DNA of 64,000 nucleotides from Woeseiaceae bacterium (GTDB lineage: Bacteria; Pseudomonadota; Gammaproteobacteria; Steroidobacterales; Woeseiaceae): the NCBI GenBank assembly GCA_041617855.1, contig JBFJOC010000003.1:16959-80958 (forward strand), read 5' to 3'. This document shows, piece by piece, positions 6,617 through 38,115 of this stretch (the first letter of the stretch is position 1; the number at the start of each line of letters is the position of its first letter). Below the pieces are notes generated by a model. It had not been told where the DNA came from. It did no database searches and worked only from the letters and a program-made list of their open reading frames with translations. Both the position numbers and the translations under genes were made by a program.

Positions 6617-7267
6617 TTATTCCGGAATTTGCAGGGTGCCGTAGCACCGACTGTCCGCGATAATGTCACGAACGGCGTCCGGCATCAGAAATCGAGGATC
6701 ACGCCCGGCCGCCACCAGGTGGCGTATCTCGGACGAAGAAATTTCGAGCTGGGTCACCGCATGAATATGCAGCCGCCCGTGCGTATTCTCGTGCAGGTCG
6801 GACTCGCGATGCGTCCCGCGATTGGATATCAGCTCGCCAAGCGGTCCGAGATCGGGAGCTTTCCAGCCAGGCCGATGCGCGACGACGATGTGCGCGAGTT
6901 CGAGAAGCTCGGTCCATCTGTGCCACGTCGGCAGCCCCAAAAACGCATCCATGCCCAGGATCAGACCGAGTGGCCGCCCGCTGAATTCCGCACGCATTGC
7001 CGTCAGCGTGTCGACCGTGTAGGACGGGCCGTCGCGATGAAGCTCCCGAGCATCGACGACGAACCCGGGCTGTCCGGAGACCGCAGCACGCACCATTTCG
7101 AGGCGCAGCTCCGCGCTCGCGAACGTATTGCCGCGGTGCGGCGGGTCTCCGCTAGGCACGAAGCGAACGTGCTCGAACGAAAGCGCCTGCAGCATCTCAA
7201 ACGCCGTGCGCAGATGCCCGTAGTGGACAGGATCGAAAGTTCCGCCGAACACTCCAATCGGGCTCAT
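6617..7267 (-). CDS. nadD: Nicotinate-nucleotide adenylyltransferase
   Basis: 216-aa ORF with a GVFGGTFDPVHYGHL nucleotidyltransferase motif. ATG verified at 7267-7265. Confidence 0.93.
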   Translation of the reverse strand: MSPIGVFGGTFDPVHYGHLRTAFEMLQALSFEHVRFVPSGDPPHRGNTFASAELRLEMVRAAVSGQPGFVVDARELHRDGPSYTVDTLTAMRAEFSGRPLGLILGMDAFLGLPTWHRWTELLELAHIVVAHRPGWKAPDLGPLGELISNRGTHRESDLHENTHGRLHIHAVTQLEISSSEIRHLVAAGRDPRFLMPDAVRDIIADSRCYGTLQIPE

Positions 7268-7295
7268 CGCCCGGCCGCCCGCCGGTGGTCCCCGC

Positions 7296-8384
7296 TCATG
7301 CGGCCTTCCGGCTGCCCAGGGCCAGACCGAGCAATACGTCCGTCACGAGCTGCCAGGGATCCTCACCCGACTGGCCTTTGGCGGCCCGATCCGCGCGCGC
7401 GCAATTCCTGAGCAGCCGCAGCATGGCGCCCCCCTGAAGCCGGACCATGGCATTGCGGACGAGGCCCTGCCGGCTGCGCCATACACCAGCCTTGCTCAGA
7501 GCACGCGAAAGATTCGAACCGCGGCCGAGCTCGCTCTCCACGCGCGCGAGCGTGCGCAGCTCGCGTGCCATCGCCCACACCACGATGACGGGTTCGAGCC
7601 CCTCTGCGCGCAAACCGGCCAGGATTTTCAGTGACCGCGTCGCATCGCCAGCGAGCGCTGCATCCACGAGCTTATACACATCGTAGCGACTGCTATCTGC
7701 TACTGCGGAGCTGACGTCGGCGGCCGTAACGCGGGCTTGACCCAAAACCAGCCGCAGTTTTTCCACTTCCTGTGCAGCCGCGAGCAGATTCCCCTCGACG
7801 CGGTCTGCAATCAGCGTGACGGCGTCCCGATCCGGTTTCAGGCCCACGCCCTGCATCCGACGCCTGATCCAGTCCGGTAATTCGTGCCGCCCTACGGGCC
7901 GGACCTCAACGGCGACGCCGGCCGCACCGAGCGACCTAGCCCACTTCGAAGCTGCGGTGCTGCGATCCAGTTTCGGCGCAACGACGACGAAAAGGAGGTC
8001 GCCGGCCGTCGCCTCAGCAAGTTCGGCGATAAGCTGGCCCCCGATCCGGCCCGGCTTGCCGGTGGGCAGGCGCAATTCCAGCAATCGCTTATCCGCGAAC
8101 AACGACATGGCCGCGCTCGATTCGCGCAGCTTATTCCAGTCGAAGCCCGGTCCCGCTACGTGCAGTTCGCGCGCGGTGAAGCCGCGCTCCCGCGCCGCCC
8201 CGCGGAGCGATTCGAGCGCCTCGGCAGCCAGCAAATGTTCATCACCCGTGATTAGATAACAAGGTGCGAGATTCGATCGCAAGTGGGAAGCGAGCTGTTT
8301 CGCCGAAATTTTCACTCGTTTAGGGTTCGGGTGACTGGAAAGGCATGATACCGTGGCACATCGATGCCGAAAAGCGTCACTCAC
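7296..8384 (-). CDS. holA: DNA polymerase III subunit delta
   Basis: ORF with the YLITGDEHLL..A pattern, matching my recollection of the E. coli HolA N-terminus (YLLLGNDPLL). It lies upstream of nadD. The start is uncertain: the track start at 8384 is GTG, and another in-frame GTG at 8315 would give a length closer to E. coli. Confidence 0.85.
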   Translation of the reverse strand: MSDAFRHRCATVSCLSSHPNPKRVKISAKQLASHLRSNLAPCYLITGDEHLLAAEALESLRGAARERGFTARELHVAGPGFDWNKLRESSAAMSLFADKRLLELRLPTGKPGRIGGQLIAELAEATAGDLLFVVVAPKLDRSTAASKWARSLGAAGVAVEVRPVGRHELPDWIRRRMQGVGLKPDRDAVTLIADRVEGNLLAAAQEVEKLRLVLGQARVTAADVSSAVADSSRYDVYKLVDAALAGDATRSLKILAGLRAEGLEPVIVVWAMARELRTLARVESELGRGSNLSRALSKAGVWRSRQGLVRNAMVRLQGGAMLRLLRNCARADRAAKGQSGEDPWQLVTDVLLGLALGSRKAA

Positions 8385-8399
8385 GCGGCACGCCGGTGC

Positions 8400-8654
8400 T
8401 CAATCGAGTTGTTCCATGTCGATGGATTCGCTTTCCAACAGCACGGGAATCCCGTTTTGCACGGGGTACAGAAGCTTACCGTCATCCGTAATTAGCGCTT
8501 CGGTGAGGCGTTCCGTCACCACGGCGCCCTCCCGATTGCATACGCCGCCGTCACTGATCGCGGCGTTAATGGTCTTCAGCGTCTGGCTCGTGACCGGCGC
8601 CAGACCCTTCTGGGTGACCGGACAGCGCAATATGGCCAGCAGTCGTTTGTCCAT
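8400..8654 (-). CDS. Trm112/YcaR-like small protein (UPF0434-like)
   Basis: The C-terminal 84 aa of the 155-aa track ORF start at an internal ATG (cat at 8652-8654). The sequence is MDKRLLAILRCPVTQKGL...LLYPVQNGIPVLL, the Trm112 signature. The upstream extension is Arg/Ala-rich and not protein-like. Confidence 0.75.
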   Translation of the reverse strand: MDKRLLAILRCPVTQKGLAPVTSQTLKTINAAISDGGVCNREGAVVTERLTEALITDDGKLLYPVQNGIPVLLESESIDMEQLD

Positions 8655-8789
8655 GCGAATTGCTCGGGCCTCTCGGAACAAGTGGTTGTTTTCAATAAAA
8701 TTTATGGCAAAAAATCCGGTGAACTCGGCGCGCCGCCGACCGTCCGCGGGCGGCGGCAGCAGCCAGGCACAGCATAACCGCTCCCGCCG

Positions 8790-9203
8790 ATGACGGAAAC
8801 TTCTCGGGAATCGGCGCCCTGGCTGGATCGCGCCGCCGTTGCGCTGTCCGCGCTGTGCGTCGTGCACTGCCTGACGCTACCGTTGCTGGTCGCCGGCCTA
8901 CCGTTTCTCGCCCAGTTCGTGCCAGGCCATTTGCATGCACAGATGCTCGTTATCGTCGTGCCGCTGAGCGTCGTTGCCCTTGCGATCGGCTTTCGGCGCC
9001 ATCGCAGCAGGCCCGTACTGGTTGCCGGAGCCATCGGCATGCTCCTTCTGATTATCGGCGCTACCTTTGCGCACAACTTTCTGGGTCTGCTCGCGGACCG
9101 GCTGTTCACGATTTCGGGCGCGATCGTACTGGCTGCCGCGCACGTGCAGAACAGCCTGCTTGCCCGCCGCTGTCACGCGTCCACGGACAAGCTCACGACC
9201 TGA
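8790..9203 (+). CDS. MerC-domain-like membrane protein (orphan, no mer operon)
   Basis: 137-aa ORF with four predicted TM helices. The first carries LCVVHCLTLPLL, which resembles the MerC family CxxP-type motif. ATG verified at 8790. Confidence 0.55.
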   Translation: MTETSRESAPWLDRAAVALSALCVVHCLTLPLLVAGLPFLAQFVPGHLHAQMLVIVVPLSVVALAIGFRRHRSRPVLVAGAIGMLLLIIGATFAHNFLGLLADRLFTISGAIVLAAAHVQNSLLARRCHASTDKLTT

Positions 9204-10248
9204 GCATCCTTTGCAGCTCAGCGTTTTTGCAGTTCTCTGCGGCCTGAACCGCAAGCTCCCGATCCTGGGGAAAAGGTCTAAAGCGCGGGTTGACGTCACA
9301 GCAGCGCAGCAGGACCTTGACCGCGGCGACCTGTTTGTTCTGGCGCAGCAGCCGGCTCAGGTAATGTTGCGCAAATTCGAGCGCCGCGGTCGTGTCCTCC
9401 CAGTCCATAAGTTCTGCAAAGAACCATGACCACGCAGCGTCAGGATCGGGATCCTGCTCCAACCAGTCGAAAATGTGCTGCAGTCCGCCACGACGATTAC
9501 CGCGACTTGCGAATCCGTAAGCATGCGTCAACGTCTTGCGTCGATCCTGCGTAACCGCTTCCTCGCGGTCTTCCCGGGTCGCCGGGACCGGCTCCGGAAT
9601 CGAAATGTCGTCGGCCAGCTTATTGACGCGCAGCACGGCCCCGATCGCGGCAAATAGTCCGAACGTGGCACACCACGCGGCCAGCCGGAGGAGAACACCT
9701 GGGACTTTGTTTTGCTCGAGCAGCGCGGCCAGCAGGCCGGCCGCCCCGATCACAAACGGCAGTAGCCAGTAACTGGCGCCACAGCGACCGATGAATGCGG
9801 CCAGGCGTCGCGGATCCACGCACTGCAGCGGCGAATGCGTGATTGCGAGTACCCCGAGCGACGCCGGCAGCAGGCCGGTCGCCAAGAGCGCGAGCCCGAC
9901 AGCCGGTGGCTGCCCGACGCGCGCAGCAAGTGCATACCCGATTGCTGCGCTACCTGCGCCCAAGACCAGCGGGAACAGACTCCAGGCTTCGGAAAAGAAG
10001 CCGAACAGAGCAATATCCGGCGGCGCCACTTCGCGGCCGCGGGCGCGGGCCTCCAAAAGCTGCATCAGGTAGCGACTGATCGCGGGGACAAGCAGCAGTA
10101 TTAAAAAGATGCCTAGGACACCGCCGAGCAGCGCCAGCTCGCTCAGCAAATAAAATGTGACGAGCGCGAGCAGCGCGGTCGCTGTCCGAAACGGATACGC
10201 GAGATCGGCAAAGATGTCATGAGCTTTCGACATCGTCCTGTCGGCCAT
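9193..10248 (-). CDS. Hypothetical polytopic membrane protein with a soluble helical (TPR-like?) C-terminal domain
   Basis: Long ORF with about 6 hydrophobic helices followed by a roughly 130-aa hydrophilic tail (..[44 protein letters not shown]..). Start set to internal ATG 10248 (alternative 10233). It overlaps the yidD stop. Family not recognised with confidence (possibly DUF4013-like). Confidence 0.6.
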
Positions 10249-10480
10249 CGGGGACCGGGTCGAACCCCGCGTCGCCCCAGGGATGACAGCGAGCAATTCG
10301 TTTTGCGGCAAGCCAGGTCCCGCGAAACGCCCCGTGCCTTTTCAGCGCCTCCACCGCGTATCGTGAACAGCTGGGCTGAAACCTGCAGTTTCGGCCGAGC
10401 CACGGCGAAATTAGCAGCCCGTAGAGCACGACGAGCGCAATGACGGGCCACGCAAGCAGTCGCAACAACGCCATCCCCAT
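10217..10480 (-). CDS. yidD: Membrane protein insertion efficiency factor YidD
   Basis: 87-aa ORF with the diagnostic [19 protein letters not shown] and [13 protein letters not shown] motifs. Its ATG shares one nt with the sufE stop (TAATG). Confidence 0.88.
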
Positions 10481-10911
10481 TACGCGGTCTCGAGTGCAGA
10501 TTCCGCAAAGCGGCGAATCGCCCCGAGCATCGACGCAAGACCGTTGCTCCGCGTCGGGCTGAGATGCTGCTCGAGCTCCAGCGCGCTGACGAATTCCGCC
10601 GATGAGTCGAGGATCTCTTCGGGACTTCGTCCGCTGTAGACGCGCAGCAGCAGCGCAATCAGCCCCGACACGATCGCGGCATCACTCGTTGCCTGAAACT
10701 CGAGCCGACCATCGCGCCGGTTCGAGACAAACCAAACCTGTGACTGACAGCCCTTTATTCTATTGTCCTCCGTGCGCAGGGATTCGGGGAACGCTGGCAA
10801 GCGCCGACCCATGTCGACGAGATACTGATAGCGATCCATCCAGTCATCGAAGAGCCGGAATTCGTCGATGACCTCCTGCTCTGCCTCGCGAACTTCGCTC
10901 GCCGGCCGCAT
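10480..10911 (-). CDS. sufE: SufE-family sulfur acceptor protein
   Basis: Contains KGCQSQVWF (active-site Cys), [13 protein letters not shown] and LSPTRSNGL. Start set to ATG 10911, which overlaps the cysS TAA by one nt. The track start at 10929 is GTG. Confidence 0.88.
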
Positions 10912-12290
10912 TATGGTTCCCTTCGCCACGTCGTGCCGTCCAGTCCGTCCTCGATCCGAATGCCGGCGGCGGCAAGCCGATCCCTGATCCGGTCGGCCGT
11001 CTCGAAGTCGCGCTGCGCCCGCGCGGCCTGGCGCTCGGCGAGGAGTTCGTCGATCGCAGCGGGCGATATGTCACTGCCGGTTTCGCCGGCAAACCAGACT
11101 TCGGCATCCTGCTGCAGAAGGCCGAGCAGGTCACCTGCTGCCAACATTGTCGCAGCGAGCCGTTGTTTCTTGGCGGCGTCCCGTGCCTTGTTCAGCTGTC
11201 TGGCAACACCAAACAGCTCGGCCATCGCTTTCGGCGTGTTGATGTCGTCCTCGAGTGCGGCCACGAGCGCACCGGGTGGTTCGGCTGTCTGGCGAAACCC
11301 ATCGTCAATCTCGATACCTCGCAGCGCGCCGTACAGACGGTCAAGCATACGCCGCGCCGCCTCTATTGTTTTCATGGACCAGTCGAGCGGCTGCCGATAG
11401 TGCGCACTCATCAGTGCGAGCCTTAAGACCTCGCCCCGGTAGCTTTGAATCAGCTCGCGCACGAGCACGACGTTACCCAATGACTTGGACATTTTCTCGT
11501 GATCCACGGAAAGGAAACCGTTGTGCAGCCAGAAACGGGCAAATTCTTCGCCATCGTGTGCGCAGCGACTCTGGGCCAGCTCGTTTTCGTGATGCGGAAA
11601 TACCAGGTCCTGGCCACCGGCATGAATATCGATTGTGCGGCCCAAGTGCTTCTCCGCCATCGCCGAACATTCGATATGCCAACCGGGGCGGCCGCGGCCC
11701 CACGGGGATTGCCATCCCGGCAGCTCGGGTGTGGACGGCTTCCAGAGGACGAAATCCTGCGCGGCCTTCTTGTACGGTGCGACCTCGACGCGAGCACCGG
11801 CAATCATTTCGCGAAGATCGCGCTTCGACAGCTCCCCGTAAGCCTCGTAGCTACTGACATCGAACAACACGTGGCCTTCGGCTTCGTACGCGTGTCCGCT
11901 CCCTACCAGCGTCTCGATCATTGCTATCATCTCAGCGACGTGCTCTGTCGCACGCGGCTCGATGTCAGGGGGCAGTACGTATAGCGTCTGCATGTCCTCG
12001 TTGTATGCCTTGATGAATCTCTCGGTAATCGCTTCGATGGGCTTACCGCTTTCGATTGCCGCTGCGTTTATCTTGTCATCGACATCGGTAATGTTGCGTG
12101 CAAACGTGAGCGCATACCGCTGCCTCAACACTCTCGCGAGCACGTCGAACACGACGGCAGGGCGAGCGTTACCAATGTGCGCGAAGTTGTAAACGGTGGG
12201 CCCGCAAAGATACATGGTCACTTCGCTGCCGTGCAGAGGCTCGAACGTGACCTTGTGACCGCGTCGAGTGTCGTGAAGTTTCAGCGCCAT
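10911..12290 (-). CDS. cysS: Cysteine--tRNA ligase
   Basis: 459-aa ORF with class I aaRS HIGH (FAHIGNARP) and KMSKS (EKMSKSLGN) motifs and overall CysRS similarity. Confidence 0.95.
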
Positions 12291-28271: not shown

Positions 28272-29168
28272 TCAGGTTGACGACCGCTGACTCCTAACGT
28301 ACGCGTCGAACGCCCTGGCGAAGCGCATCGCGGACCGCTCGTCCGCGCGAAAATACAGCGACGGCTCGGCAAGCTCGAGTTCCATGAGGAGAAACGCGCC
28401 TTCGTCCCCACGCACGAAGTCGAGACGCGCGTAGACGGGCATGGGATCGACCAGCGCCAGGATGTCCCTGGCCGTCCGAATCAATCGTTCCGACGGCCGC
28501 ACCGGTCGAATGTCGGCTCCGTGCTCTTCCTGAACGCGAAAATCACCGGCGGTCGGCACCTTAAGGATTGCGTGGCTGTAGCGGCCACCGAAGAAAAACA
28601 GCGAATACTCGCCCTCGTCGACGATATTGCCGTTAAACGGTTGCACGAAAAACCGCCGGCCTTCGAACGTACGCTTAAGTTCGATCTCGAGCCGGGACGT
28701 TACTGGCTGCAGCAGCACGAACGTATCCGCGGCATTCGCGCCAACGACGGGCTTCACGACCAGCTTGTCTGCACGGGCCTGGCGAAAGAATTCTCGAGCC
28801 CCAGCCTCGGGATAATCGTCATGCCAGTAGCTCGGCACGATTGGCGCACCGCGCGCCTCGAGATCCCGCAGATAAGTTTTCGTCAACGCCCAGCGCACGA
28901 CCGCCAGCGGATTGACGAGCGTGGCGCGGGATGCCTCGATGCTCTCCAGCAGTGCCAGGAATTCGTCGGGCGCGTCAAAATAGTCCCAGGGCGTACAGAT
29001 GTACACCGCATCGAAGCTGTTCCAATCGACCGCGTCCCGTCGCCAGGGCACCATTTCCACGGCCCACCCGAGCGACCACATCGGGCCGATGCTGAGATCC
29101 GCGTCGGTAACGAAATCGCCGAGTTCGTCCATGGTCAGGTAGGCGCAGCGCATCGTGGATATCGGCAA
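28272..29168 (-). CDS. ATP-grasp domain protein (RimK/glutathione-synthetase-like fold), unknown substrate
   Basis: 298-aa ORF. The pattern ..KLVVKPVVGANA..; FFVQPF..I...GEYSLFFFGG..SHA..K; ..YARLDFV...G.F.LMELELAEP is typical of ATP-grasp ligases. Confidence 0.7.
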   Translation of the reverse strand: MPISTMRCAYLTMDELGDFVTDADLSIGPMWSLGWAVEMVPWRRDAVDWNSFDAVYICTPWDYFDAPDEFLALLESIEASRATLVNPLAVVRWALTKTYLRDLEARGAPIVPSYWHDDYPEAGAREFFRQARADKLVVKPVVGANAADTFVLLQPVTSRLEIELKRTFEGRRFFVQPFNGNIVDEGEYSLFFFGGRYSHAILKVPTAGDFRVQEEHGADIRPVRPSERLIRTARDILALVDPMPVYARLDFVRGDEGAFLLMELELAEPSLYFRADERSAMRFARAFDAYVRSQRSST

Positions 29169-29366
29169 GGTCTAACAGAGAATTGCCTATACTCGGATCC
29201 ATACGCCCCGACTGCAAGTTGTGGTTTCGCCCTGCAGGCTGCGCCTAGAATGCCGCGTAGGACGCAGATTCAGAGCATGCAATTGAATGTAACCGTGCCG
29301 GAACGAACTTCCTGAAATGGCCGCTGCGGCAGCTGGCTGGCTCGCACTTACGCAGCGCGCTCGCGG

Positions 29367-30359
29367 ATGATGGCGACTGCCACCAGTATGCGTGACGCGC
29401 TACCCGGCCTGCTGCTGTCGGCCGTCGTGGCACTGGCGGTGCGCTTCGTCAGCGACCGGCTGGGCGGACCGGCCATGCTGTACGCCCTTCTATTCGGGAT
29501 GGCGTTCAATTTCCTGGCCGATGATGTGCGTTTCGCTGCCGGCATTCGCCTGGCCAGCCGTACTGTGCTGCGTCTGGGTGTGGCGCTCCTGGGCCTCCGC
29601 ATAACCACGAGCGACGTTCTGGGCCTCGGCTGGGAAACAACGGGCCTCCTGGTCGCAGGCGTCGGCGCCACGATCACGTTCGGCTGGCTCATTGGCCGCG
29701 GTTGCGGACTGACAAATGGCCATTCGATCCTGTCGGCCGGCGCAGTCGCTATCTGTGGTGCCTCGGCCGCGCTGGCAATCGCATCCGTGCTGCCGGCCGA
29801 GAAGAATCACGAGCGCAATACGATCCTGACGGTCGCGTCCGTCACCGCATTGAGCACGGTCGCCATGGTCGCATATCCGGTCTTCGTCACTTATTTAGGC
29901 TACGACAACCGGGTCGCCGGTGTGTTCCTCGGTGCGACGATCCACGATGTGGCCCAGGTCGTCGGTGCCGGTTACATCGTATCGACCGAGAGCGGCGAGA
30001 TCTCGACGCTCGTCAAGCTGATGCGTGTCGCGTGCCTCGTGCCGGTGGTAATGTTAATTTCGCTGCTGTCACGACGCCGGTCATCTGACCGTGACGCCAG
30101 GGAGCCAATCCTTCCCTGGTTTCTCGTCGTATTCGTCGCCCTGGTCGTCGTGAACAGTTCGGGATTCGTCCCGGAGCCGGTTCACGCGATCATGACGCCC
30201 GCATCGAGCTGGTGTCTGCTCACGGCCGTAGCTGCTCTGGGTGTCAAGACCTCGCTCAAGGCGCTGGTCGACGTGGGACCAGCACCGGTCGCCGCGATGT
30301 TCCTGCAGACCGCTTTTCTTGCCGGTTTCGTAATTACGGGACTGATCCTGCTGGCGTGA
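29367..30359 (+). CDS. YeiH/UPF0324-family membrane protein
   Basis: 330-aa polytopic ORF that I recognise as the YeiH-like (PF03601-type) family, from the N-terminal pattern and GAVAICGASAALA. Confidence 0.75.
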   Translation: MMATATSMRDALPGLLLSAVVALAVRFVSDRLGGPAMLYALLFGMAFNFLADDVRFAAGIRLASRTVLRLGVALLGLRITTSDVLGLGWETTGLLVAGVGATITFGWLIGRGCGLTNGHSILSAGAVAICGASAALAIASVLPAEKNHERNTILTVASVTALSTVAMVAYPVFVTYLGYDNRVAGVFLGATIHDVAQVVGAGYIVSTESGEISTLVKLMRVACLVPVVMLISLLSRRRSSDRDAREPILPWFLVVFVALVVVNSSGFVPEPVHAIMTPASSWCLLTAVAALGVKTSLKALVDVGPAPVAAMFLQTAFLAGFVITGLILLA

Positions 30360-30364
30360 TGCGG

Positions 30365-31093
30365 TCACTCCTGGCCTGAACCCGGCCGGTTCGTCCCATC
30401 AAAGCTACCTGTCTCGAGGAAACGAAGCGTCAGCTCAATCGTCGTCCGCATCCGCATCATGAATGCGTGCGAGTGGCTCACAACGACGAAATCGTCCATG
30501 CCTTCAACCTTCGTGTCCTCGACGGACACGCGGCCGTCGTCGGGGTTCGCGAGCACCGCGGAGGTCAACGGGTCGATCGAGCGACTGCCTGCGATAATGC
30601 CCAGCTCGAACTCCGCAGGACCGAGCGATCGCGGCACGCTGTTTCGACCCTGGCCAAGCTGCCGGCCGGCGGGACCGTTGAGCCAGTCGAAGCCCGGCAC
30701 GTCGTGAAGCTTGTCGACCGCAGCGCTGCCCTTATTTGGCGGGCCGAGCATGACGACACGCCCGAGTTCGGGTATCGGACTCTCGGCCAGGTAGTAACGC
30801 AGCAGGATGCCGCCCAGCGAGTGGGTAACGAAGTGAATTGTCTCGGTGTCCAGGTCCGAGCGACACTGCTCGACGCCGGTTCCGACGGCAAGGGGCGCGA
30901 GCCTTTCGATCGGATGCTCCCGCGATGGATAATCGATGTTCGCGACCCGGTATCCGGCCTCCGCGAGCGCGTCGGCCATCGTGTCCATCGAGCTGGCCGT
31001 GCGCAGCAGTCCGTGCAGCAGAACTACGCATTCGCGGCTCTCGGCAGTGGACGTTGCGGACAGCGCCAAAACGACAATAGCAACGCGCAGCAT
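30365..31093 (-). CDS. Secreted alpha/beta-fold hydrolase (esterase/lipase-like)
   Basis: 242-aa ORF with a signal peptide (MLRVAIVVLALSATSTAES), an oxyanion-type VVLLHGL and a nucleophile elbow THSLGG. Its ATG overlaps the stop of the upstream DUF2238 gene. Confidence 0.8.
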   Translation of the reverse strand: MLRVAIVVLALSATSTAESRECVVLLHGLLRTASSMDTMADALAEAGYRVANIDYPSREHPIERLAPLAVGTGVEQCRSDLDTETIHFVTHSLGGILLRYYLAESPIPELGRVVMLGPPNKGSAAVDKLHDVPGFDWLNGPAGRQLGQGRNSVPRSLGPAEFELGIIAGSRSIDPLTSAVLANPDDGRVSVEDTKVEGMDDFVVVSHSHAFMMRMRTTIELTLRFLETGSFDGTNRPGSGQE

Positions 31094-31707
31094 CAGTCCC
31101 TGGCCATCCCCGGGGCCGTCAGCTGGCGATCATGCACGCCGCTCAAGAGCGTGAGCGCGAGTACGGCCCCGATCAGGGCGTACGCCATATCGGACTGCGT
31201 GTCCCAGACGTATCCCTGGGTACCGAGAAACGCCTCGGCTGCCTCCGCAGACAGCAATGCGACCCACCACTCGAGGAGTTCGTAGAAGGCGCTCACCGCC
31301 AGACAGAAGCAGACGATGAAGAAGTTACGCCAGCTCGGGTAGTTGAATACCCGCAGCCGGATCATCAGCTCGCGCGCGACGATTGCCGGTATGAAGCCCT
31401 GCGCAAAGTGGCCAAGCTTGTCATAGTTGTTACGCGTCTGCTCGAGCGCTACGCGAAGCCATTCACCGAGCGGCACTTCGGCATAGGTGTAATGACCGCC
31501 GATCATAAGAATGATGCAGTGAATCAGTATCAGCGTGTAGCTGAGCGTCGTCAGCGGAAACCGGTCCCGCGTGTACCAGACGATCGCGCCGCCCGCCACC
31601 GCCGGTGCGACTTCGAGCATCCACGTGGCGCGGTCTTTCGGCCCGATTCCGGACCAGATCAAGACGGCCAGGAATATCGTTGCCCATACGGCCGGTCCGC
31701 GACGCAT
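31093..31707 (-). CDS. DUF2238/YjdF-like membrane protein
   Basis: Internal ATG 31707 (MRRGPAVWATIFLAVLIWSGIGPKDR..) lies 2 nt after the stop of the giant ORF. The sequence NNYDKLGHFAQGFIPA..ARE fits my recollection of the YjdF family. Confidence 0.7.
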   Translation of the reverse strand: MRRGPAVWATIFLAVLIWSGIGPKDRATWMLEVAPAVAGGAIVWYTRDRFPLTTLSYTLILIHCIILMIGGHYTYAEVPLGEWLRVALEQTRNNYDKLGHFAQGFIPAIVARELMIRLRVFNYPSWRNFFIVCFCLAVSAFYELLEWWVALLSAEAAEAFLGTQGYVWDTQSDMAYALIGAVLALTLLSGVHDRQLTAPGMARD

Positions 31708-31709
31708 GG

Positions 31710-34700
31710 TCACTCGGCGCTCTCGGTGTCGCGCAGCGCCGCAGAATGCCGGTCGCGCCAGTAACCCTGCCGGGCGAAGCAGCGCCACACCCACGGCAGC
31801 CAGCGCAGCAGCGCGAAGCTCAGCCACAGTGCCCAGGCAAGAATCAGCCCCTTGTAAATCCACATTGGGGCGGTCCATGCGGACGCGAGCGGCAGCGACG
31901 AATCGCTCCGATCGGCGAACCAGCGCAGCGTATTACCGTATGAGCTATTCCCCGAGACGTGCATGTCCGGCGTGCCGAGAAGTCCCCCGGGCAGGCTCCC
32001 TACGATTGCCACGAGTGCAACGATCGTCAGGCCTGCGATAGCAACCTGAATCAGGTTGAATTGCCACCAGGACACGTCCGTGCGCCATTTCTCACGGGCG
32101 CCGCAGGCCAGCAGCCAGGCGACAACGATTCCGAGCACGGGCCAATTGAACGTGCTGAATCCGAGCCCAAGCAACAGCCAGTGCCAGGCCCGCAGCGGAG
32201 TAAGCCCGGTCCGGCCCAGAATCGCCGCGACGAGGACCAGGACGGCAAGTTCCGACCAGTACAGTACGGCGGGCCCCAGGGCCGGTCCGTGCGTGGCAAT
32301 CAGCCAGCGATTCGCAGGCAGCACCATCGTCAGCGCGATGTTGCTGGCCGGGGCTGCGACGTCGACGGCGGGCGTATCCGTTCTCGACGTCACGTCGCCG
32401 TCGCTGCGCCACGTCACCTGGATCCGATGCTCGCCGGGCAGAATGGGCACTGTCACTTCGCCTTCTTCCGCGCGCAGCGGCTCGATCCGGCCATCGATTG
32501 CGACTTCCGTCACCTCGGCGCTTGCGGGTAGCCCCAGCCTGTGCTGCGCACCGCGCGTGCTGCGATAGTTCAACGCGAGCGTGGCCGTACTCGAACGATT
32601 ACCATGCACAACGTCGAGCGCAACCGCATCGAAGGCGAGCGTCCGTCCCTCGCTCGGCTCCGATCGCGTGGTCCGAATCGTCAGCGATTCGCCCCCGCGC
32701 GGGAAAAATTCGGCGAGTCGCGCGTCTGCGCTTAGCGCCGCCGATTCGCTCTCGGGTACGCCCCCGAACTCTGCGTGCCAGATACTGCCGATAGCGACGC
32801 GCCAGACCTCCTGCCAGGGTGCGCCGGCCAAGGCGAAAAGCTCGAGCAGCGGCGTGCGCGGCAGATTCGAACGCCAGCTTTGGACGCGCTGATTCGGGCT
32901 CATCGTTACCAGGATCGTGTCATCGCGCACCGTCATTCCGTCCGTCACGACGGCTTCGCCGGGGAGCAGCGGAATCTCGAGTGTCAATGCACCCTGCTCG
33001 GGTGCGATGCGCGCCACGATCGTCGTGACGTGCCAATCGAGATCCAGCTCGATCGTACGTTCGATGCGTACGAACGGCGGAAAGCGGCTCGTCTCCCAGC
33101 GGGGAGTTGCGTCCTCACCGCTGCCTCTCTCGAGGCGCGTGAGCTGCAGGGATCCGGACACCAGGCGGCGATCCTTGATGCCTGCGACCAGCCAGCCGTT
33201 GCTGGCGACCTCGATGACCCTCGGAGGTGTGGGAAACGGGATCTCCAGCGTGTCGGCATCCGGTACGCTGCCACGCAGCACGAGTTCATGCTGTCCGGCC
33301 GGCAGGCGCAGCCAAAGGACTTCGTCAGGCCCGCGCATGACCTCGATCGCGTTGCTGCCGTTGACCCGGATCGCGCTTGGGCGCCAGCCCCTTTCCGCGC
33401 CCGGCAGCGGCACCCCAACCTCCGCGACTGCATGCACGATGAGGCTCATCCGCACGCTTTCAGCATCGACGGCAACTTCGGCCGAGGCAATTTCGGCACA
33501 GCGAGGTGCGCAGGCCGGGGGCGCGAGCAGGCGCTTCTCCAGTTCCTCCAGGATCTGCGGGGATGGCGTCTCGGCGCGCGCCGGCGGGCTGTCCAGCGTC
33601 AGCATCACCGCCAGGCCGACGAGTAGCAGCGACGCCGCGCGGCTCGTGCCGAATGCAAAGCCGCGTGGCAGGCGTATACGCCTGCCGAGGATTTCGGCGG
33701 CGAACACCGCCGTGAACAGCAGCAGCAGCAAGACCTCGAAGAACCGCAGCGCCGTGACCAGCCCGCGAGGCATGACGATCAGCCGCATCGACTGACCCGC
33801 GTCGACCGGCCCGCCCCAGCTCAATTGGTACGTGTTCCACTCCCAGGACGGGACTCCCGGACCTGCCTGCACGATCGCGTTGGGTGCGTATCGCGCATAG
33901 CTCCTTGCGGCCGTGCGAGCGGCGGCGACCAGCTCGTCACGGGCAGCCTCCACCTGTACCTGCTGCAAGCGCCGTTCCGCCACGCCGGCTTCGCTCTTCA
34001 AGACGGCATCGGATTCCGCCGTCGCCGGGGCCCTGGGTACCGGAGGCTCGTGCACATCGACGCGCATCAACCGGTGCTGGGGCTCCAGCTGTGGATAGAT
34101 CGCGATGCGCAACTGCGAGGCCGCAAATGGAACCAGGACCAGTACGAGGAGCACCGCGCTGATGGCCTCGTAAACGCGCGCCGAGCGCATCAGTCGGCCT
34201 TTGGGCGCGACGCGGATCAGCGCAATTGCGACCAGCAGGTTGAGCCACAGCCATGACGGCGCATTCGGCTCATGGAAGCTCAAGGTCAGCGCAAGCAACG
34301 CAATCACCCCGGCGGTGGGGCCGAACAGCCGCCACGCGGCGATTGTCGTAATCAGCACCAGAAAGAAATCGAGAAGCTGCCAGCGGCTTACCCAGCTCCC
34401 CGGAGCACGATCGGCACCCGGTGCCACCAACAGCTTGTGCCCCGGCGGCAGATTGAGTTGCAGAGACACATTGACGAAGCGCGCGTCCCAGCCCGTGACC
34501 GGCATGCTGCTACGGGTGGCGGCACGCCCGAGGCTTTCGAGGTCAACGGCAGACCGGCGGACCTCGACGCCCGTGTAGCCCTCCTGCGCACCCTCGGTTA
34601 CGAGCAGATTCTCCCCGCCTTCGCGGGCACTCAGCAGCCGATACGGCGGCTGCATGTCCAGGCGCCAGCCGGTGCGCATCGAGCCGCTGATCCTGTCCTT

Positions 34701-35789
34701 CACGACGAATCCGTCACCGGCAAAGTCGAGCCACATCTGGCGCTTTAGCGTAAGCTCGTTGTCGGCGGCCACCATGCCGCGGCTGCGTTCCTCGATCTCG
34801 AGCGGCTGGCCCGGCTCGATGCGAAACGCCGGGAGATTTTGCCATGCGGCCGGTACCTGGACCTGCAGCGGATCGACCGGCGGTGGGCCCTGCGCGGCGG
34901 TCACCCGGAGCCGATCATTGGCCCGATAGCTCCAGATCTCCCACTCGGGCATGTTCGTTTCGGGCGCCGGAAGCTGAATTGCATTCAGCACGTCGTCGGC
35001 GCGCGCCTGAAGCGTTACGGTCCAGACCCCCGGGCGCACCTGCAGGCGTAGCCTGCCGTCCGGTTCGAGGCGCGCGGGCATCTCCGAGGCCAATGCCAGC
35101 GGCACAAAGCCCGCTGGCAGCAGCGGCCCGAACAGGGCCTCACGCACGCTGCCGGACACCTCGACCCTGAGCTCCGTGGTCAGCCGGGTCGGCACGTCGT
35201 CGCTGACCAGTCGATAGACACTGCTCTGGATCGCATCCCGAGCCTGGGGCTCCTGCCGGCGTTCGCCAAGAAACAGGCCGGCGCGACCGCGATCTGGCTG
35301 CGCGATCCGGCGCCCGTCAATCGTCAACGACACGAGGCCGCTAACGTCCGGCACCCGCAGCACGCCGGGGCGCTCGTCCCAACCAAATCTGCCCGTCACC
35401 GTATAGCGGCCCGGCGGCAGCCGCAGCTGGGGGATGCCGTCACGCATGACGACAATCGCGGAGCGGCCGTTTACCGAAACCTGGTCGGGCCAATAGGCAA
35501 CGTCCCCCGGTAGCGGCAGCCACTGCTCTGCTGCGTACACCGTCCATTGCTGGGTGAAACGGGCGCCCGTGCCGGTTACCGCGATATCCAGACCTCCGGG
35601 CCAGGCGCATACGAATTCATCTTCGTTGCGCGTGGACCGATCGAAGAAGAACGGGCATTCCCTATAGTTTTTGCCCTGCAAAACCCAGCCGCGCCATTGC
35701 TCGAGCTCAGGCGGGACGTAAACGTCGTTCGCGACTGCAAACACGGGCAGCAGTGCAAGAACATGAGCCAGCCTGTGCATTCTAGTCAT
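31710..35789 (-). CDS. Large (about 1,359 aa) polytopic membrane protein with two tandem homologous modules; family not recognised
   Basis: Start set to ATG 35789 (MTRMHRLAHVLALLPVFAVA/ND, a good signal peptide), preceded by AGGAG 6 nt upstream. There are two roughly 450-aa hydrophilic regions, each followed by a cluster of TM helices. The track ORF begins at an upstream TTG (35957). Confidence 0.85.
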   Translation of the reverse strand: MTRMHRLAHVLALLPVFAVANDVYVPPELEQWRGWVLQGKNYRECPFFFDRSTRNEDEFVCAWPGGLDIAVTGTGARFTQQWTVYAAEQWLPLPGDVAYWPDQVSVNGRSAIVVMRDGIPQLRLPPGRYTVTGRFGWDERPGVLRVPDVSGLVSLTIDGRRIAQPDRGRAGLFLGERRQEPQARDAIQSSVYRLVSDDVPTRLTTELRVEVSGSVREALFGPLLPAGFVPLALASEMPARLEPDGRLRLQVRPGVWTVTLQARADDVLNAIQLPAPETNMPEWEIWSYRANDRLRVTAAQGPPPVDPLQVQVPAAWQNLPAFRIEPGQPLEIEERSRGMVAADNELTLKRQMWLDFAGDGFVVKDRISGSMRTGWRLDMQPPYRLLSAREGGENLLVTEGAQEGYTGVEVRRSAVDLESLGRAATRSSMPVTGWDARFVNVSLQLNLPPGHKLLVAPGADRAPGSWVSRWQLLDFFLVLITTIAAWRLFGPTAGVIALLALTLSFHEPNAPSWLWLNLLVAIALIRVAPKGRLMRSARVYEAISAVLLVLVLVPFAASQLRIAIYPQLEPQHRLMRVDVHEPPVPRAPATAESDAVLKSEAGVAERRLQQVQVEAARDELVAAARTAARSYARYAPNAIVQAGPGVPSWEWNTYQLSWGGPVDAGQSMRLIVMPRGLVTALRFFEVLLLLLFTAVFAAEILGRRIRLPRGFAFGTSRAASLLLVGLAVMLTLDSPPARAETPSPQILEELEKRLLAPPACAPRCAEIASAEVAVDAESVRMSLIVHAVAEVGVPLPGAERGWRPSAIRVNGSNAIEVMRGPDEVLWLRLPAGQHELVLRGSVPDADTLEIPFPTPPRVIEVASNGWLVAGIKDRRLVSGSLQLTRLERGSGEDATPRWETSRFPPFVRIERTIELDLDWHVTTIVARIAPEQGALTLEIPLLPGEAVVTDGMTVRDDTILVTMSPNQRVQSWRSNLPRTPLLELFALAGAPWQEVWRVAIGSIWHAEFGGVPESESAALSADARLAEFFPRGGESLTIRTTRSEPSEGRTLAFDAVALDVVHGNRSSTATLALNYRSTRGAQHRLGLPASAEVTEVAIDGRIEPLRAEEGEVTVPILPGEHRIQVTWRSDGDVTSRTDTPAVDVAAPASNIALTMVLPANRWLIATHGPALGPAVLYWSELAVLVLVAAILGRTGLTPLRAWHWLLLGLGFSTFNWPVLGIVVAWLLACGAREKWRTDVSWWQFNLIQVAIAGLTIVALVAIVGSLPGGLLGTPDMHVSGNSSYGNTLRWFADRSDSSLPLASAWTAPMWIYKGLILAWALWLSFALLRWLPWVWRCFARQGYWRDRHSAALRDTESAE

Positions 35790-36076
35790 CACCGTCTCCT
35801 GAGCATCGGCGCGCTCGACACTATACGTGAACGCATCGCCGCCGGTTTCCGGGGCAGCGGCCGCGTCGCATCGGTCAATAACGCCGCCGCTCGCGCTAAC
35901 CGTGCCGTTTGCGGAGCTGTCGCCGCGGCCCGAACGCGCTCCGAGATGAAACGACAAAGCGCGGCCCGCGGGATGATGCTTTTCTGCTGATTCGTGATGA
36001 CGTCGTCAAGACCTGCAGGCAGCCGAATCATGCGGGCCATGCTGCTCGCGATAATGATCAGCCGTCGCTCATTCAT
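35789..36076 (-). CDS. Hypothetical 95-aa protein, possible first gene of the giant-protein operon
   Basis: ATG 36076 is preceded by GAGG with a 5-nt spacer and a TTGTCA-N18-TACAAT promoter-like element. Third codon positions are mostly G/C. Its stop overlaps the ATG of the giant gene (TGATG). The C-terminal half is Ala/Arg-rich and there is no known domain, so it could be non-coding leader. Confidence 0.4.
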   Translation of the reverse strand: MNERRLIIIASSMARMIRLPAGLDDVITNQQKSIIPRAALCRFISERVRAAATAPQTARLARAAALLTDATRPLPRKPAAMRSRIVSSAPMLRRR

Positions 36077-36107
36077 GGTAGCCTCGATTGGACTTAATTC
36101 TTAGGCG

Positions 36108-36137
36108 ATTGTAGGAGGCAGCCGCGCCGAGTGACAA
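36108..36137 (-). promoter_or_regulatory. Sigma-70-like promoter upstream of orf95 and the giant-protein operon
   Basis: The minus strand reads TTGTCA (36137-36132), an 18-nt spacer, then TACAAT (36113-36108). It lies in the divergent intergenic region shared with uup. Confidence 0.45.
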
Positions 36138-36195
36138 TGCCCGCGCGCCTCGAGTTTCTTATCGTCGGACGCGCGCAACGAACGACGGACTTCGC

Positions 36196-38115
36196 ATGCC
36201 GATTCTACGTTTTGACGCCGTGTCGCTCGCTTTTGGCGACCAGGTGATTCTCGCCGCTGCCGAATTCTCGATTGAGGCCGGCGAGCGTGTTTGTCTCATC
36301 GGGAGAAATGGCGCCGGCAAGTCGACGACACTGAAGCTCATTACCGGCGACGTCGCGCCGGACCACGGCGAAATCGTTATGAATTCGCTTGTCGCCGTCA
36401 GTCAGCTCGAGCAGGAGCTGCCCGCGCTGCTCGATGAGCCGGTTCGCGCAGTCGTGCGTTCCGGTCTCGCCGAGGCGGAGCGCCTGCTCGGGGAATACCG
36501 GCGTCTTTCGGATGCCGATCTTGACCGCGAATCACTTGCCCGCCTAGCGGAGCTGCATGCGCGCATCGACGCGCGGGATGCATGGCACATCGATCAGCGC
36601 GTGGACGAGATAATCAGCGATCTGAGCCTGCCGGGCGAAACGCGGATGAGCGAGCTGTCGGGTGGCTGGCGCCGCCGCGTCGCGCTGGCGAGAGCGCTGG
36701 TCGGCAAACCCGATCTGCTCCTCCTTGACGAGCCGACCAACCACCTCGACATCGCCACGATATCCTGGCTCGAAGATCGTATCAGTGCATATCCCGGAGC
36801 GGTGATGTTCATTACCCATGACCGCAAATTCCTGTCCCGGCTTTGCGATCGGATTGTCGAAATCGATCGCGGCAAACTCACCAGCTGGCCGGGAAATTAT
36901 CAACAGTACCTGCGCCGCAAGGAACAAGCCCTCGAGGATGAGGCCGCGGAAAATGCCCGCTTCGACAAAAAGTTAGCGCAGGAGGAGATCTGGATACGCC
37001 AGGGGATCAAAGCCCGGCGCACGCGTAACGAAGGCCGCGCGCGCGCGCTTCAGAGAATGCGTGAAATCCGTGCGCAGCGCGTACCTCGCGAGCATCAGCC
37101 ACGCCTGCACATCGAGGAAGCCGGACAGTCGGGTCGCAAAGTGATTCGGGCACGTAATGTCTGTTACGGCTATGCGGGCGAGACGCTCATTCGCGAATTG
37201 TCGATCACGATCATGCGCGGCGACCGCATAGGCCTGATTGGAAACAACGGCGTCGGCAAGACGACGTTGCTGCGTTTGCTACTCGGCGAGATTCAGCCAC
37301 AGGCGGGCACGATCAAGCACGGTACGAATCTCGAGGTCGGTTACTTCGATCAACTGCGCCAGACTCTGGATCCGGAAAAATCGGTCGCCTACAACGTGGG
37401 TGAAGGCCGAACGTACATCAAGCTAAATGGCAAAGACAGGCACATCGTCGGCTACCTGAAGGGCTTTTTATTTACGCCAAAACGCGCAGCGATGCCCGTG
37501 AAGGCGCTGTCTGGCGGCGAGCGAAATCGTGTCATCCTAGCAAAACTTTTCACCCGGCCCGCGAATCTGCTCGTACTGGACGAACCGACGAACGATCTCG
37601 ACATCGAGACCCTGGAAGTCCTCGAAGAGAAGCTATGCGGCTACTCGGGCACGCTGATTGTCGTCAGCCATGACCGTGAGTTCCTGGACAATGTTGTGAC
37701 CAGCACGCTTGCGTTCGAAGCAGACGGCAGGGTTCGGGAGTATCCCGGGGGATATAGTGACTGGCTGAGGAAAGGCCGGGCGCTCGCCGAAGCGGACGAC
37801 CCGAACGTCGCGGCGGAGCGACGCAACGGGTCAAAGGAACGTCGGCCCGCGAAGATTCAGACCAAGCTCGGCTACAAAGACCAGCGCGAACTCGATCAGC
37901 TGCCGTCAGAAATCGACGCGCTGGAGGAATCGATAGCCGAGCTGTACGCCGTCGTCGCCGACCCGAATTTCTACACGGGGACCGATGCCTCGGTTCGTGA
38001 CACGCTTGCCAGTCTACGCGCGGCCGAGGCGCGGCTCGAAGCAAGAATCGAGCGCTGGAGTGAGCTCGAGGCACTCGGCGCGAAGCTCGAGGCGCGCGGC
38101 AGGCAGCACGACTGA
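36196..38115 (+). CDS. uup: ABC-F family ATPase (Uup-like)
   Basis: 639-aa ORF with two ABC cassettes (GRNGAGKST and GNNGVGKTT), a linker and a C-terminal coiled-coil tail. There are no TM segments. Confidence 0.9.
   Translation: MPILRFDAVSLAFGDQVILAAAEFSIEAGERVCLIGRNGAGKSTTLKLITGDVAPDHGEIVMNSLVAVSQLEQELPALLDEPVRAVVRSGLAEAERLLGEYRRLSDADLDRESLARLAELHARIDARDAWHIDQRVDEIISDLSLPGETRMSELSGGWRRRVALARALVGKPDLLLLDEPTNHLDIATISWLEDRISAYPGAVMFITHDRKFLSRLCDRIVEIDRGKLTSWPGNYQQYLRRKEQALEDEAAENARFDKKLAQEEIWIRQGIKARRTRNEGRARALQRMREIRAQRVPREHQPRLHIEEAGQSGRKVIRARNVCYGYAGETLIRELSITIMRGDRIGLIGNNGVGKTTLLRLLLGEIQPQAGTIKHGTNLEVGYFDQLRQTLDPEKSVAYNVGEGRTYIKLNGKDRHIVGYLKGFLFTPKRAAMPVKALSGGERNRVILAKLFTRPANLLVLDEPTNDLDIETLEVLEEKLCGYSGTLIVVSHDREFLDNVVTSTLAFEADGRVREYPGGYSDWLRKGRALAEADDPNVAAERRNGSKERRPAKIQTKLGYKDQRELDQLPSEIDALEESIAELYAVVADPNFYTGTDASVRDTLASLRAAEARLEARIERWSELEALGAKLEARGRQHD

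Follow-up and report, generated by a model that had tools for sequence, protein, structure and literature searches.

A 1,359-residue membrane protein of an unnamed family at a probably composite locus in a Woeseiaceae bacterium

Four reading frames on the minus strand

The window analysed here is a stretch of 64,000 nucleotides (nt) from a Woeseiaceae bacterium (GenBank assembly GCA_041617855.1, contig JBFJOC010000003.1, positions 16,959 to 80,958 of the forward strand), and all positions below are counted within it unless a locus is named. Between 30365 and 36137, its minus strand carries four closely packed open reading frames (ORFs): a 95-codon frame, orf95; a giant gene encoding a membrane protein of 1,359 amino acids; a gene for a DUF2238/YjdF-like membrane protein; and a gene for a secreted alpha/beta hydrolase. 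The original prediction, made from the letters of the window, took the tight coupling of the four genes as a sign of one shared function. We come to a different view, in which the locus is probably a composite transcription unit rather than a dedicated four-gene system. The features, in the direction of reading, are the following.

36108..36137, minus strand: sigma-70-like promoter match TTGTCA-N18-TACAAT in the divergent intergenic region between uup and slyX; presumed slyX promoter.
35789..36076, minus strand: orf95, a degenerate, frameshifted slyX (BLASTP, synteny, and DNA alignment with the related loci L083 and L084).
35818..35854, minus strand: conserved upstream element AACCC-N17-GCGTTGACGTATAGTGT, a phylogenetic footprint whose -10-like TATAGT (35825-35820) lies about 33 nt ahead of the giant gene's ATG.
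31710..35789, minus strand: giant gene, 1,359 amino acids, unnamed conserved family (translation, homologues, AlphaFold2, Foldseek and hhalign).
31093..31707, minus strand: DUF2238/YjdF-like membrane protein, 204 amino acids (Pfam PF09997).
30365..31093, minus strand: secreted alpha/beta hydrolase, 242 amino acids, with a signal peptide, the nucleophile elbow T-H-S92-L-G-G and the candidate triad partners D185/D186 and H207/H209.

Rechecking the coordinates on the minus strand over 30365-36137 confirmed the layout as predicted, with the four ORFs, the Shine-Dalgarno sites, the two TGATG overlaps, the gap of 2 nt and the promoter-like match all in place. The ATG of orf95 at 36076 is downstream of a GAGG, and the last base of its TGA (35791-35789) is at the same time the A of the giant gene's ATG (35789-35787). 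Preceded by AGGAG at 35800-35796, the giant gene runs for 1,359 codons to a TGA at 31712-31710, from which two nucleotides (cc) lead to the DUF2238 ATG at 31707; the TGA of the DUF2238 gene (31095-31093) overlaps the ATG of the hydrolase gene (31093-31091). No intrinsic terminator-like site lies between the four genes, the single minus-strand match being inside the giant ORF, and an Rfam search of 29000-37000 gave no match.

The promoter match ahead of orf95 consists of TTGTCA (36137-36132), an 18-nt spacer and TACAAT (36113-36108). It agrees with the consensus at 10 of 12 positions and is the sole such match in 29300-36400; shuffled sequence yields 0.9 matches of this quality per 7.1 kb, and thus the motif alone is no better than chance. 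Its -10 hexamer, CCTACAAT, is kept in L083, the closest relative, and is degenerate in L084.

Gene linkage and the history of the locus

We compared 84 loci (numbered with the prefix L) by tblastn and by hidden Markov models built from the clade's own proteins. Judged by identity to the giant protein, 27 of them are close (at least 52%) and 57 distant (below 52%). Among the close loci, slyX adjoins the cluster in 21, DUF2238 in 21 and the hydrolase gene in 15. The partners can also be lost singly: DUF2238 alone is missing in L022 and L042, and the hydrolase alone in at least six loci. The original prediction had asked whether orthologues of the giant gene are linked to DUF2238 or hydrolase genes in other genomes. 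They are not in any of the 57 distant loci, where no slyX, DUF2238 or hydrolase gene occurs within 6 kb of the giant gene; nor are any of the three found beside it in 4 of the 27 close loci or on a plasmid of Azoarcus sp. KH32C. When neighbouring ORFs of the 57 distant loci were clustered, no recurrent family emerged. The giant gene is often flanked there by opposite-strand genes, and its immediate neighbours are unrelated (peptidases, a sigma-54 activator, uracil-DNA glycosylase, ankyrin, diguanylate cyclase and SuhB). DUF2238, hydrolase and slyX flank the giant gene only in one Woeseiaceae-type lineage.

A link to peptidyl-prolyl isomerases was also considered and rejected; a cyclophilin gene is near the giant gene in only 4 of the 84 loci, and on the Azoarcus plasmid a gene for a secreted FKBP-type isomerase lies divergently upstream. 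In L016 (9980-11008) and L018 (6268-7326), both of the Woeseiaceae type and both without slyX and DUF2238, a cyclophilin-type isomerase with a signal peptide lies directly downstream of the giant gene.

The remaining cluster also exists on its own: four loci of at least three genomes (L085, L087, L088 and L089) show the same synteny (UPRTase ... GNAT, uup / slyX ... uvrA) but no giant gene. In L085 and in L088/L089, the slyX TGA is followed after 1-12 nt by the DUF2238 ATG and then by the hydrolase gene; in L087, the called start of DUF2238 overlaps slyX, and the hydrolase gene again follows. These loci came from a search for homologues of the hydrolase, which returned only orthologues of at least 66% identity and no distant contexts. 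The 4.2-kb segment made up of the giant gene and its upstream element is bounded exactly by the stop of slyX on one side and the start of DUF2238 on the other. The giant ORF has 65-68% G+C versus 60-63% in the flanking genes (3-6% richer), which fits a later insertion and could equally reflect a protein rich in Ala, Arg, Pro, Gly and Trp.

The first frame of the presumed operon, orf95, occupies the syntenic position of slyX. It shares 41% identity over 54 amino acids (BLASTP, E 4e-12) with the 68-amino-acid SlyX (PF04102) at the same position in L002, and it retains LDDVITNQQKSI and ERVR. When its DNA is aligned with L083 and L084, its two closest relatives, a 5-nt deletion appears between 35892 and 35891, directly before the conserved CCGCCGCAYTAYTGA. 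The ancestral slyX TGA survives as a vestige at 35877-35875, now out of frame, and the reading frame runs on past this old stop for about 30 extra codons, up to the start of the giant gene. The slyX stop lies 76-86 nt ahead of the giant gene in all relatives, and the overlap is seen in the window alone. Since it came about when the 5-nt deletion put the old stop out of frame, the overlap of orf95 with the giant gene is accidental. In contrast to an intact SlyX, a coiled coil of about 68-72 amino acids, orf95 has a frameshifted C-terminus, the PPHY end and the stop having been removed by the deletion. Two prolines (P20 and P36) now stand in the former coiled coil, several acidic heptad residues are lost, and the Pfam SlyX score of 12.7 bits is below the cut-off of 30. 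In this genome, orf95 is probably a pseudogene. SlyX of E. coli is a 72-amino-acid cytoplasmic coiled-coil protein reported to bind RNase E's catalytic domain (PMC13232886), a role with no relation to the envelope.

A conserved upstream element of its own accompanies the giant gene and keeps a constant distance from it in about 22 close loci (L001-L010, L012, L014-L018, L022, L024, L025, L042, L083, L084 and L086), among them L016 and L018, which have no slyX. The slyX-DUF2238 junctions of the loci without the giant gene lack this element. Judging from this conservation, the element is probably the giant gene's own promoter or operator. Its reading as a standard sigma-70 or extracytoplasmic function (ECF) promoter was rejected: TATAGT alone fits, and AACCC, 22-25 nt upstream, has a non-canonical spacing. 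The element may be read by a sigma factor not yet identified, or promoter and operator may be combined in it.

We propose the following history of the locus. First, an older Woeseiaceae-type unit would have comprised slyX, DUF2238 and a secreted Ser-Asp-His alpha/beta hydrolase, in this order. Second, the giant gene and its promoter-like element would have entered between slyX and DUF2238 in a single lineage, as a presence/absence insertion. Third, slyX has since decayed in the window, leaving a run-on ORF that ends by chance in TGATG. We are confident of this evolutionary and architectural account as a whole, that is, of an older cluster, an inserted giant gene, a decayed slyX and the duplicated module described below. 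As there are neither gaps nor terminators between them, the giant, DUF2238 and hydrolase genes are likely to be co-transcribed here, from the giant gene's own promoter, from the slyX promoter or from both. We infer that this co-transcription reflects the site of insertion and not a functional partnership.

Several points weigh against the composite reading. The event at the locus could be either a gain of the giant gene by insertion or its repeated deletion, and it is at this locus that L085 and L087-L089 lack the gene. In addition, the junction between the giant gene and DUF2238 is tight throughout the clade (a 4-nt overlap in L001 and L002; 0-2 nt in L084, L086 and the window), which is compatible with selection for co-expression. 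Tight overlap is also found again with an unrelated gene downstream: on the Azoarcus plasmid, an isoaspartyl peptidase gene overlaps the stop of the giant gene by 4 nt. The overlapping stop and start codons of the window arise from insertion and frameshift, and close packing alone is thus weak evidence for shared function, which we regard as a methodological lesson of this locus. With no linkage in the 57 distant loci, syntenic loci that lack the giant gene, and orf95 being slyX, the idea that tight coupling means a common function of all four genes is not borne out.

The identities predicted for the two downstream products did hold. The DUF2238 protein matches PF09997 over the full domain (E 3.8e-58; 195.8 bits versus a cut-off of 26.4; residues 40-177 on profile positions 4-140 of 140). 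Against NCBIfam PRK09867 it scores 207 bits and does not reach the equivalog cut-off of 353; it is a homologue of E. coli YjdF, not an equivalog. A 2025 preprint places DUF2238 in the Wok family of the Lipocone superfamily, predicts that Wok proteins are integral-membrane enzymes working at the outer leaflet, where they would exchange phosphate-linked lipid head groups, for example in cardiolipin synthesis, or remove them, and lists alpha/beta hydrolases as optional neighbours (bioRxiv 10.1101/2025.01.14.632903). The window protein adjoins such a hydrolase; the synaptojanin-like phosphatase and the carotenoid genes that the preprint gives as neighbours of the family are not present at the window locus.

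The hydrolase resembles small secreted lipase/esterase-type alpha/beta hydrolases (Abhydrolase_6, Palm_thioest, DUF676/PGAP1-like) in its signal peptide, its HG oxyanion motif, its T-H-S-L-G variant of the GxSxG elbow, within the motif FVTHSLGG, and its invariant Asp and His. It differs from them in that its Pfam scores are all marginal (Abhydrolase_6, 27.8 versus 26.3 bits; Palm_thioest, 27.3 versus 26.8; Abhydrolase_1, 25.8 versus 25.8). S92, D185, D186, H207, H209, C22 and C77 are invariant in 21 orthologues, which source databases name "triacylglycerol lipase" or "lysophospholipase"; the nearest sequence in the PDB is Cif-like 1 (E 1.5e-5, N-terminal half only). Considering the neighbourhood table of the preprint and the joint persistence of the two genes, the Wok lipocone and the lipase-like hydrolase may well work on membrane lipids as a functional pair.

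It is conceivable that the giant protein joins this pair in one envelope or lipid-remodelling system, in which it would present or transport a lipid or ester, Wok, at the outer leaflet, would alter the head group, and the hydrolase would cleave the ester. The abutting or overlapping stops and starts are kept across the clade, all three products face the periplasm, and the outer-leaflet substrates predicted for Wok enzymes and their optional hydrolase neighbours would suit such a division of labour. However, neither partner accompanies the giant gene in 57 of 57 distant and 4 of 27 close loci, each partner can be missing by itself as described above, L085 and L087-L089 keep the DUF2238-hydrolase pair although the giant gene is absent, and the giant gene has an upstream element of its own. 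We regard a joint system as unlikely.

The giant protein and its family

The giant protein had been described as belonging to no recognisable family, and this still stands: searches of Pfam, NCBIfam, PADLOC and PDB sequences, with the single sequence by phmmer and with a profile by hmmsearch, gave no family match, nor did Pfam scans of 33 other diverse members of the family. Matches to FlgA_N, BiPBP_C and TRAP-gamma were at chance level and were discarded. The anti-phage defence models of PADLOC matched none of the four window proteins.

The family is nevertheless large. Among 8,000 candidates scored, 1,495 were homologues, and the best 120 of these, at 60-76% identity, are all about 1,350 amino acids long. 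Clustered at 50% identity, the family comprises 3,420, 2,735 and 1,725 clusters at E values of at most 1e-3, 1e-10 and 1e-30, respectively, nearly all of them full length (1,330-1,420 amino acids). It occurs in at least 582 GTDB species genomes, with hosts including Woeseiaceae, Steroidobacteraceae, Methylococcales, Thiomargarita/Thioploca, Zobellella, Nitrospinales, Acidobacteria, Myxococcales, Thermodesulfobacteriota and Mariprofundaceae. The giant family is therefore a large, unnamed one that is widespread in diderm bacteria, and outside the lineage of the window its gene is solitary almost everywhere. The Azoarcus sp. KH32C homologue WP_015452075.1, of 1,364 amino acids and called "hypothetical protein" in RefSeq, is encoded at 6905-10999 of plasmid pAZKH (NC_020548.1; our locus L090), a 738-kb mobilizable megaplasmid of a cultured betaproteobacterium. 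A literature search for this accession found no mention of it.

Two AlphaFold2 models were computed from a 64-sequence alignment, one for residues 21-570 (pLDDT 91.8) and one for residues 161-1359 (pLDDT 84.0, pTM 0.72), and the topology was derived from them in combination with hydropathy. This recovered the predicted features, namely a signal peptide, two large periplasmic modules and roughly 11 transmembrane helices (TM). Along the protein, the parts are arranged as follows.

Residues 1-20 (35789-35730, minus strand): cleavable signal peptide.
Residues 21-468 (35729-34386, minus strand): periplasmic all-beta domain I.
Residues 469-564 (34385-34098, minus strand): TM1-4, the middle two helices short.
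Residues 565-674 (34097-33768, minus strand): periplasmic loop, a variable disordered stretch followed by a conserved QTGPGxPxW and short strands.
Residues 675-735 (33767-33585, minus strand): TM5 and the linker TM6.
Residues 736-1172 (33584-32274, minus strand): periplasmic all-beta domain II.
Residues 1173-1339 (32273-31773, minus strand): TM7-10 (1173-1265), a conserved periplasmic beta-hairpin with WYQDR (1266-1308) and TM11 (1309-1339).
Residues 1340-1359 (31772-31713, minus strand): short basic cytoplasmic tail.

This topology obeys the positive-inside rule, and the four invariant cysteines (C45, C61, C760 and C764) are all periplasmic. The two halves of the protein are homologous: hhalign aligns residues 61-564 with 764-1270 at 98.2% probability (E 2.8e-14, 478 columns), and BLASTP links the first subdomain to its copy in the second half at E 1e-6. 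From these alignments, the protein is an old tandem duplication of a module with an all-beta ectodomain of about 440 amino acids, four transmembrane helices, a loop or hairpin, and a fifth transmembrane helix. One extra helix joins the two copies, giving 11 after the signal peptide. Conserved polar residues fall into two groups, one in domain I (D197, R216, E217, Q250, D306, R337, D365, R376, E409 and R411) and one at the periplasmic membrane surface (D460, D474, H506/E507, Q567, Q641, Q1248 and D1293). The family alignment contains no invariant Ser, Cys or His nucleophile.

In Foldseek searches of the PDB, both models gave Ost1p/ribophorin I of the yeast and human oligosaccharyltransferase (OST) as the best match (E 1.8e-8 to 5e-6, probability 1.0). 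Lower ranks were taken by PIG-T (about 1e-4), AP mu-homology domains and the N-domains of M1 aminopeptidases; there was no match for the whole giant protein or for its membrane part. Ost1p/ribophorin I (PDB 7oci_A, 6ezn_A, 6c26_1 and 8b6l_O) likewise has ectodomains of stacked beta-sandwiches on the non-cytoplasmic face of the membrane, with a transmembrane helix after them. The differences are considerable: the two share no sequence similarity, the Ribophorin_I model PF04597 is unmatched in the window protein and the 33 other members, and no PDB sequence or profile match was obtained. Ost1 has about 450 amino acids and one transmembrane helix and is a non-catalytic part of a multi-subunit complex with the catalytic STT3, whereas the giant protein is duplicated, has 11 transmembrane helices and has no conserved partner. 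Indeed, at the level of gene neighbourhoods, no STT3/PglB-type neighbour, nor a conserved neighbour of any kind, was found in the 57 distant loci. PIG-T, the scaffold of the glycosylphosphatidylinositol (GPI) transamidase (PDB 9ub7_E and 8imx_T), shares with the giant protein a large beta-rich domain, luminal in PIG-T, with a transmembrane anchor; it differs in being a eukaryotic complex subunit with a single transmembrane helix, with TM-scores of 0.07-0.14 and no sequence relationship detected. On the models, the resemblance to Ost1 and PIG-T appears to be one of stacked beta-sandwich fold and gives no evidence of family membership.

Opposite the giant gene, several long plus-strand ORFs (190-292 amino acids) lie in 31959-33795, for example at 32775-33626 and 32917-33795. 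They are rich in Arg, Ala and Pro, typical of antisense frames in high-GC DNA, and give no evidence of genes.

A full-length membrane protein of about 1,350 residues, present in at least six diderm phyla and in thousands of clusters, has neither a Pfam or NCBIfam model nor a solved relative nor a literature, and it marks a sizeable blind spot in envelope biology. What is new is an unstudied family and not a demonstrated new mechanism, its sequences being already public as hypothetical proteins. The clean internal duplication and the high-confidence predicted structure make the family tractable, with Azoarcus sp. KH32C, Zobellella maritima and Lentisalinibacter salinarum as candidate hosts.

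Possible roles of the giant protein

Both ectodomains and all conserved polar clusters of the giant protein face the periplasm or the outer leaflet. The protein may bind or position a periplasmic or outer-leaflet envelope substrate, lipid-linked or polymeric, beside its membrane domain. Tentatively, we propose that it is a self-contained, periplasm-facing envelope scaffold or handler, by analogy with the non-catalytic Ost1 and PIG-T subunits in their complexes. The proposal builds on what the protein lacks (a cytoplasmic domain, a conserved partner, an ATPase and classical catalytic residues), on its Ost1/PIG-T-like arms and on its conserved polar cluster at the outer-leaflet interface. Two points count against such a role. 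First, superposition on Ost1/ribophorin I by Foldseek gives TM-scores of only 0.10-0.28 and root-mean-square deviations of 17-26 A; with such low scores, the resemblance to Ost1 and PIG-T is domain-level and may be that of generic beta-sandwiches. Second, several of the invariant acidic residues could be catalytic.

Another possibility is that the giant protein is a secondary transporter or flippase in which a pseudo-symmetric membrane domain would translocate an envelope lipid or polymer, its periplasmic domains acting like the porter and docking loops of RND, MMPL and SecDF proteins. A duplicated module with a large periplasmic domain and a helix bundle in each half resembles the topology of these proteins, although as an analogy of topology only; the conserved intramembrane D474 and the invariant Q1248 could couple ions or bind a substrate, and a solitary gene without an ATPase partner fits a secondary carrier. 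However, none of 34 members matches RND, MMPL, SecD/F, FtsX or any other transporter family in Pfam at E values up to 0.05, and Foldseek gives no transporter and nothing for the membrane part. The helices are moreover arranged as 5+1+5, two of them short, and not as 6+6, and the periplasmic domains are all-beta sandwiches, unlike the alpha/beta subdomains of RND proteins. A transport function thus appears improbable to us.

Even less probable is a membrane-embedded enzyme (a glycosyl-, phospho- or acyltransferase, or a hydrolase) that acts on a lipid-linked substrate with its active site at the periplasmic membrane surface. The conserved D460, D474, H506, E507, Q567 and E569 do cluster beside TM1-4, and domain I holds the invariant charged residues D197, R216, E217, D306, R337, D365, R376, E409 and R411; yet Pfam and the PDB show no similarity to GT-C, PAP2, sulfatase-type or other enzymes of lipid-linked substrates, H506 is conserved in only 81%, the conserved R/D/E pairs may be structural salt bridges, and the closest folds, Ost1 and PIG-T, are non-catalytic subunits. 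We give similarly slight credence to a bolder idea, namely that the family is an unrecognised class of envelope machine, a pseudo-symmetric protein of the inner membrane that is complete in itself and whose arms are true, very distant relatives of Ost1 and PIG-T, which acts on lipid-linked or outer-leaflet substrates and was recruited in Woeseiaceae to cooperate with the Wok lipocone and the lipase; if true, it would provide a prokaryotic antecedent for the accessory subunits of OST and GPI transamidase, for which a 2016 survey by BLASTp found none (PMC4973528).

Beyond the hydrolase gene, the surroundings of the cluster vary as well. A gene for a YeiH-type membrane protein (29367-30359, plus strand; PF03601, E 1.8e-64) converges on the hydrolase gene with 5 nt between the stops. 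Besides the window, L084 has this gene, whereas most other syntenic loci do not, and this junction is therefore also variable. Farther on, a 298-amino-acid ORF (28272-29168, minus strand) had no Pfam match at E values up to 1e-3 in the library used, and its orthologues in L001, L002, L084, L086 and L088 carry the precomputed assignment PF27100 DcsG_N (ATP-grasp-like). Most close loci likewise have this gene just downstream of the cluster.

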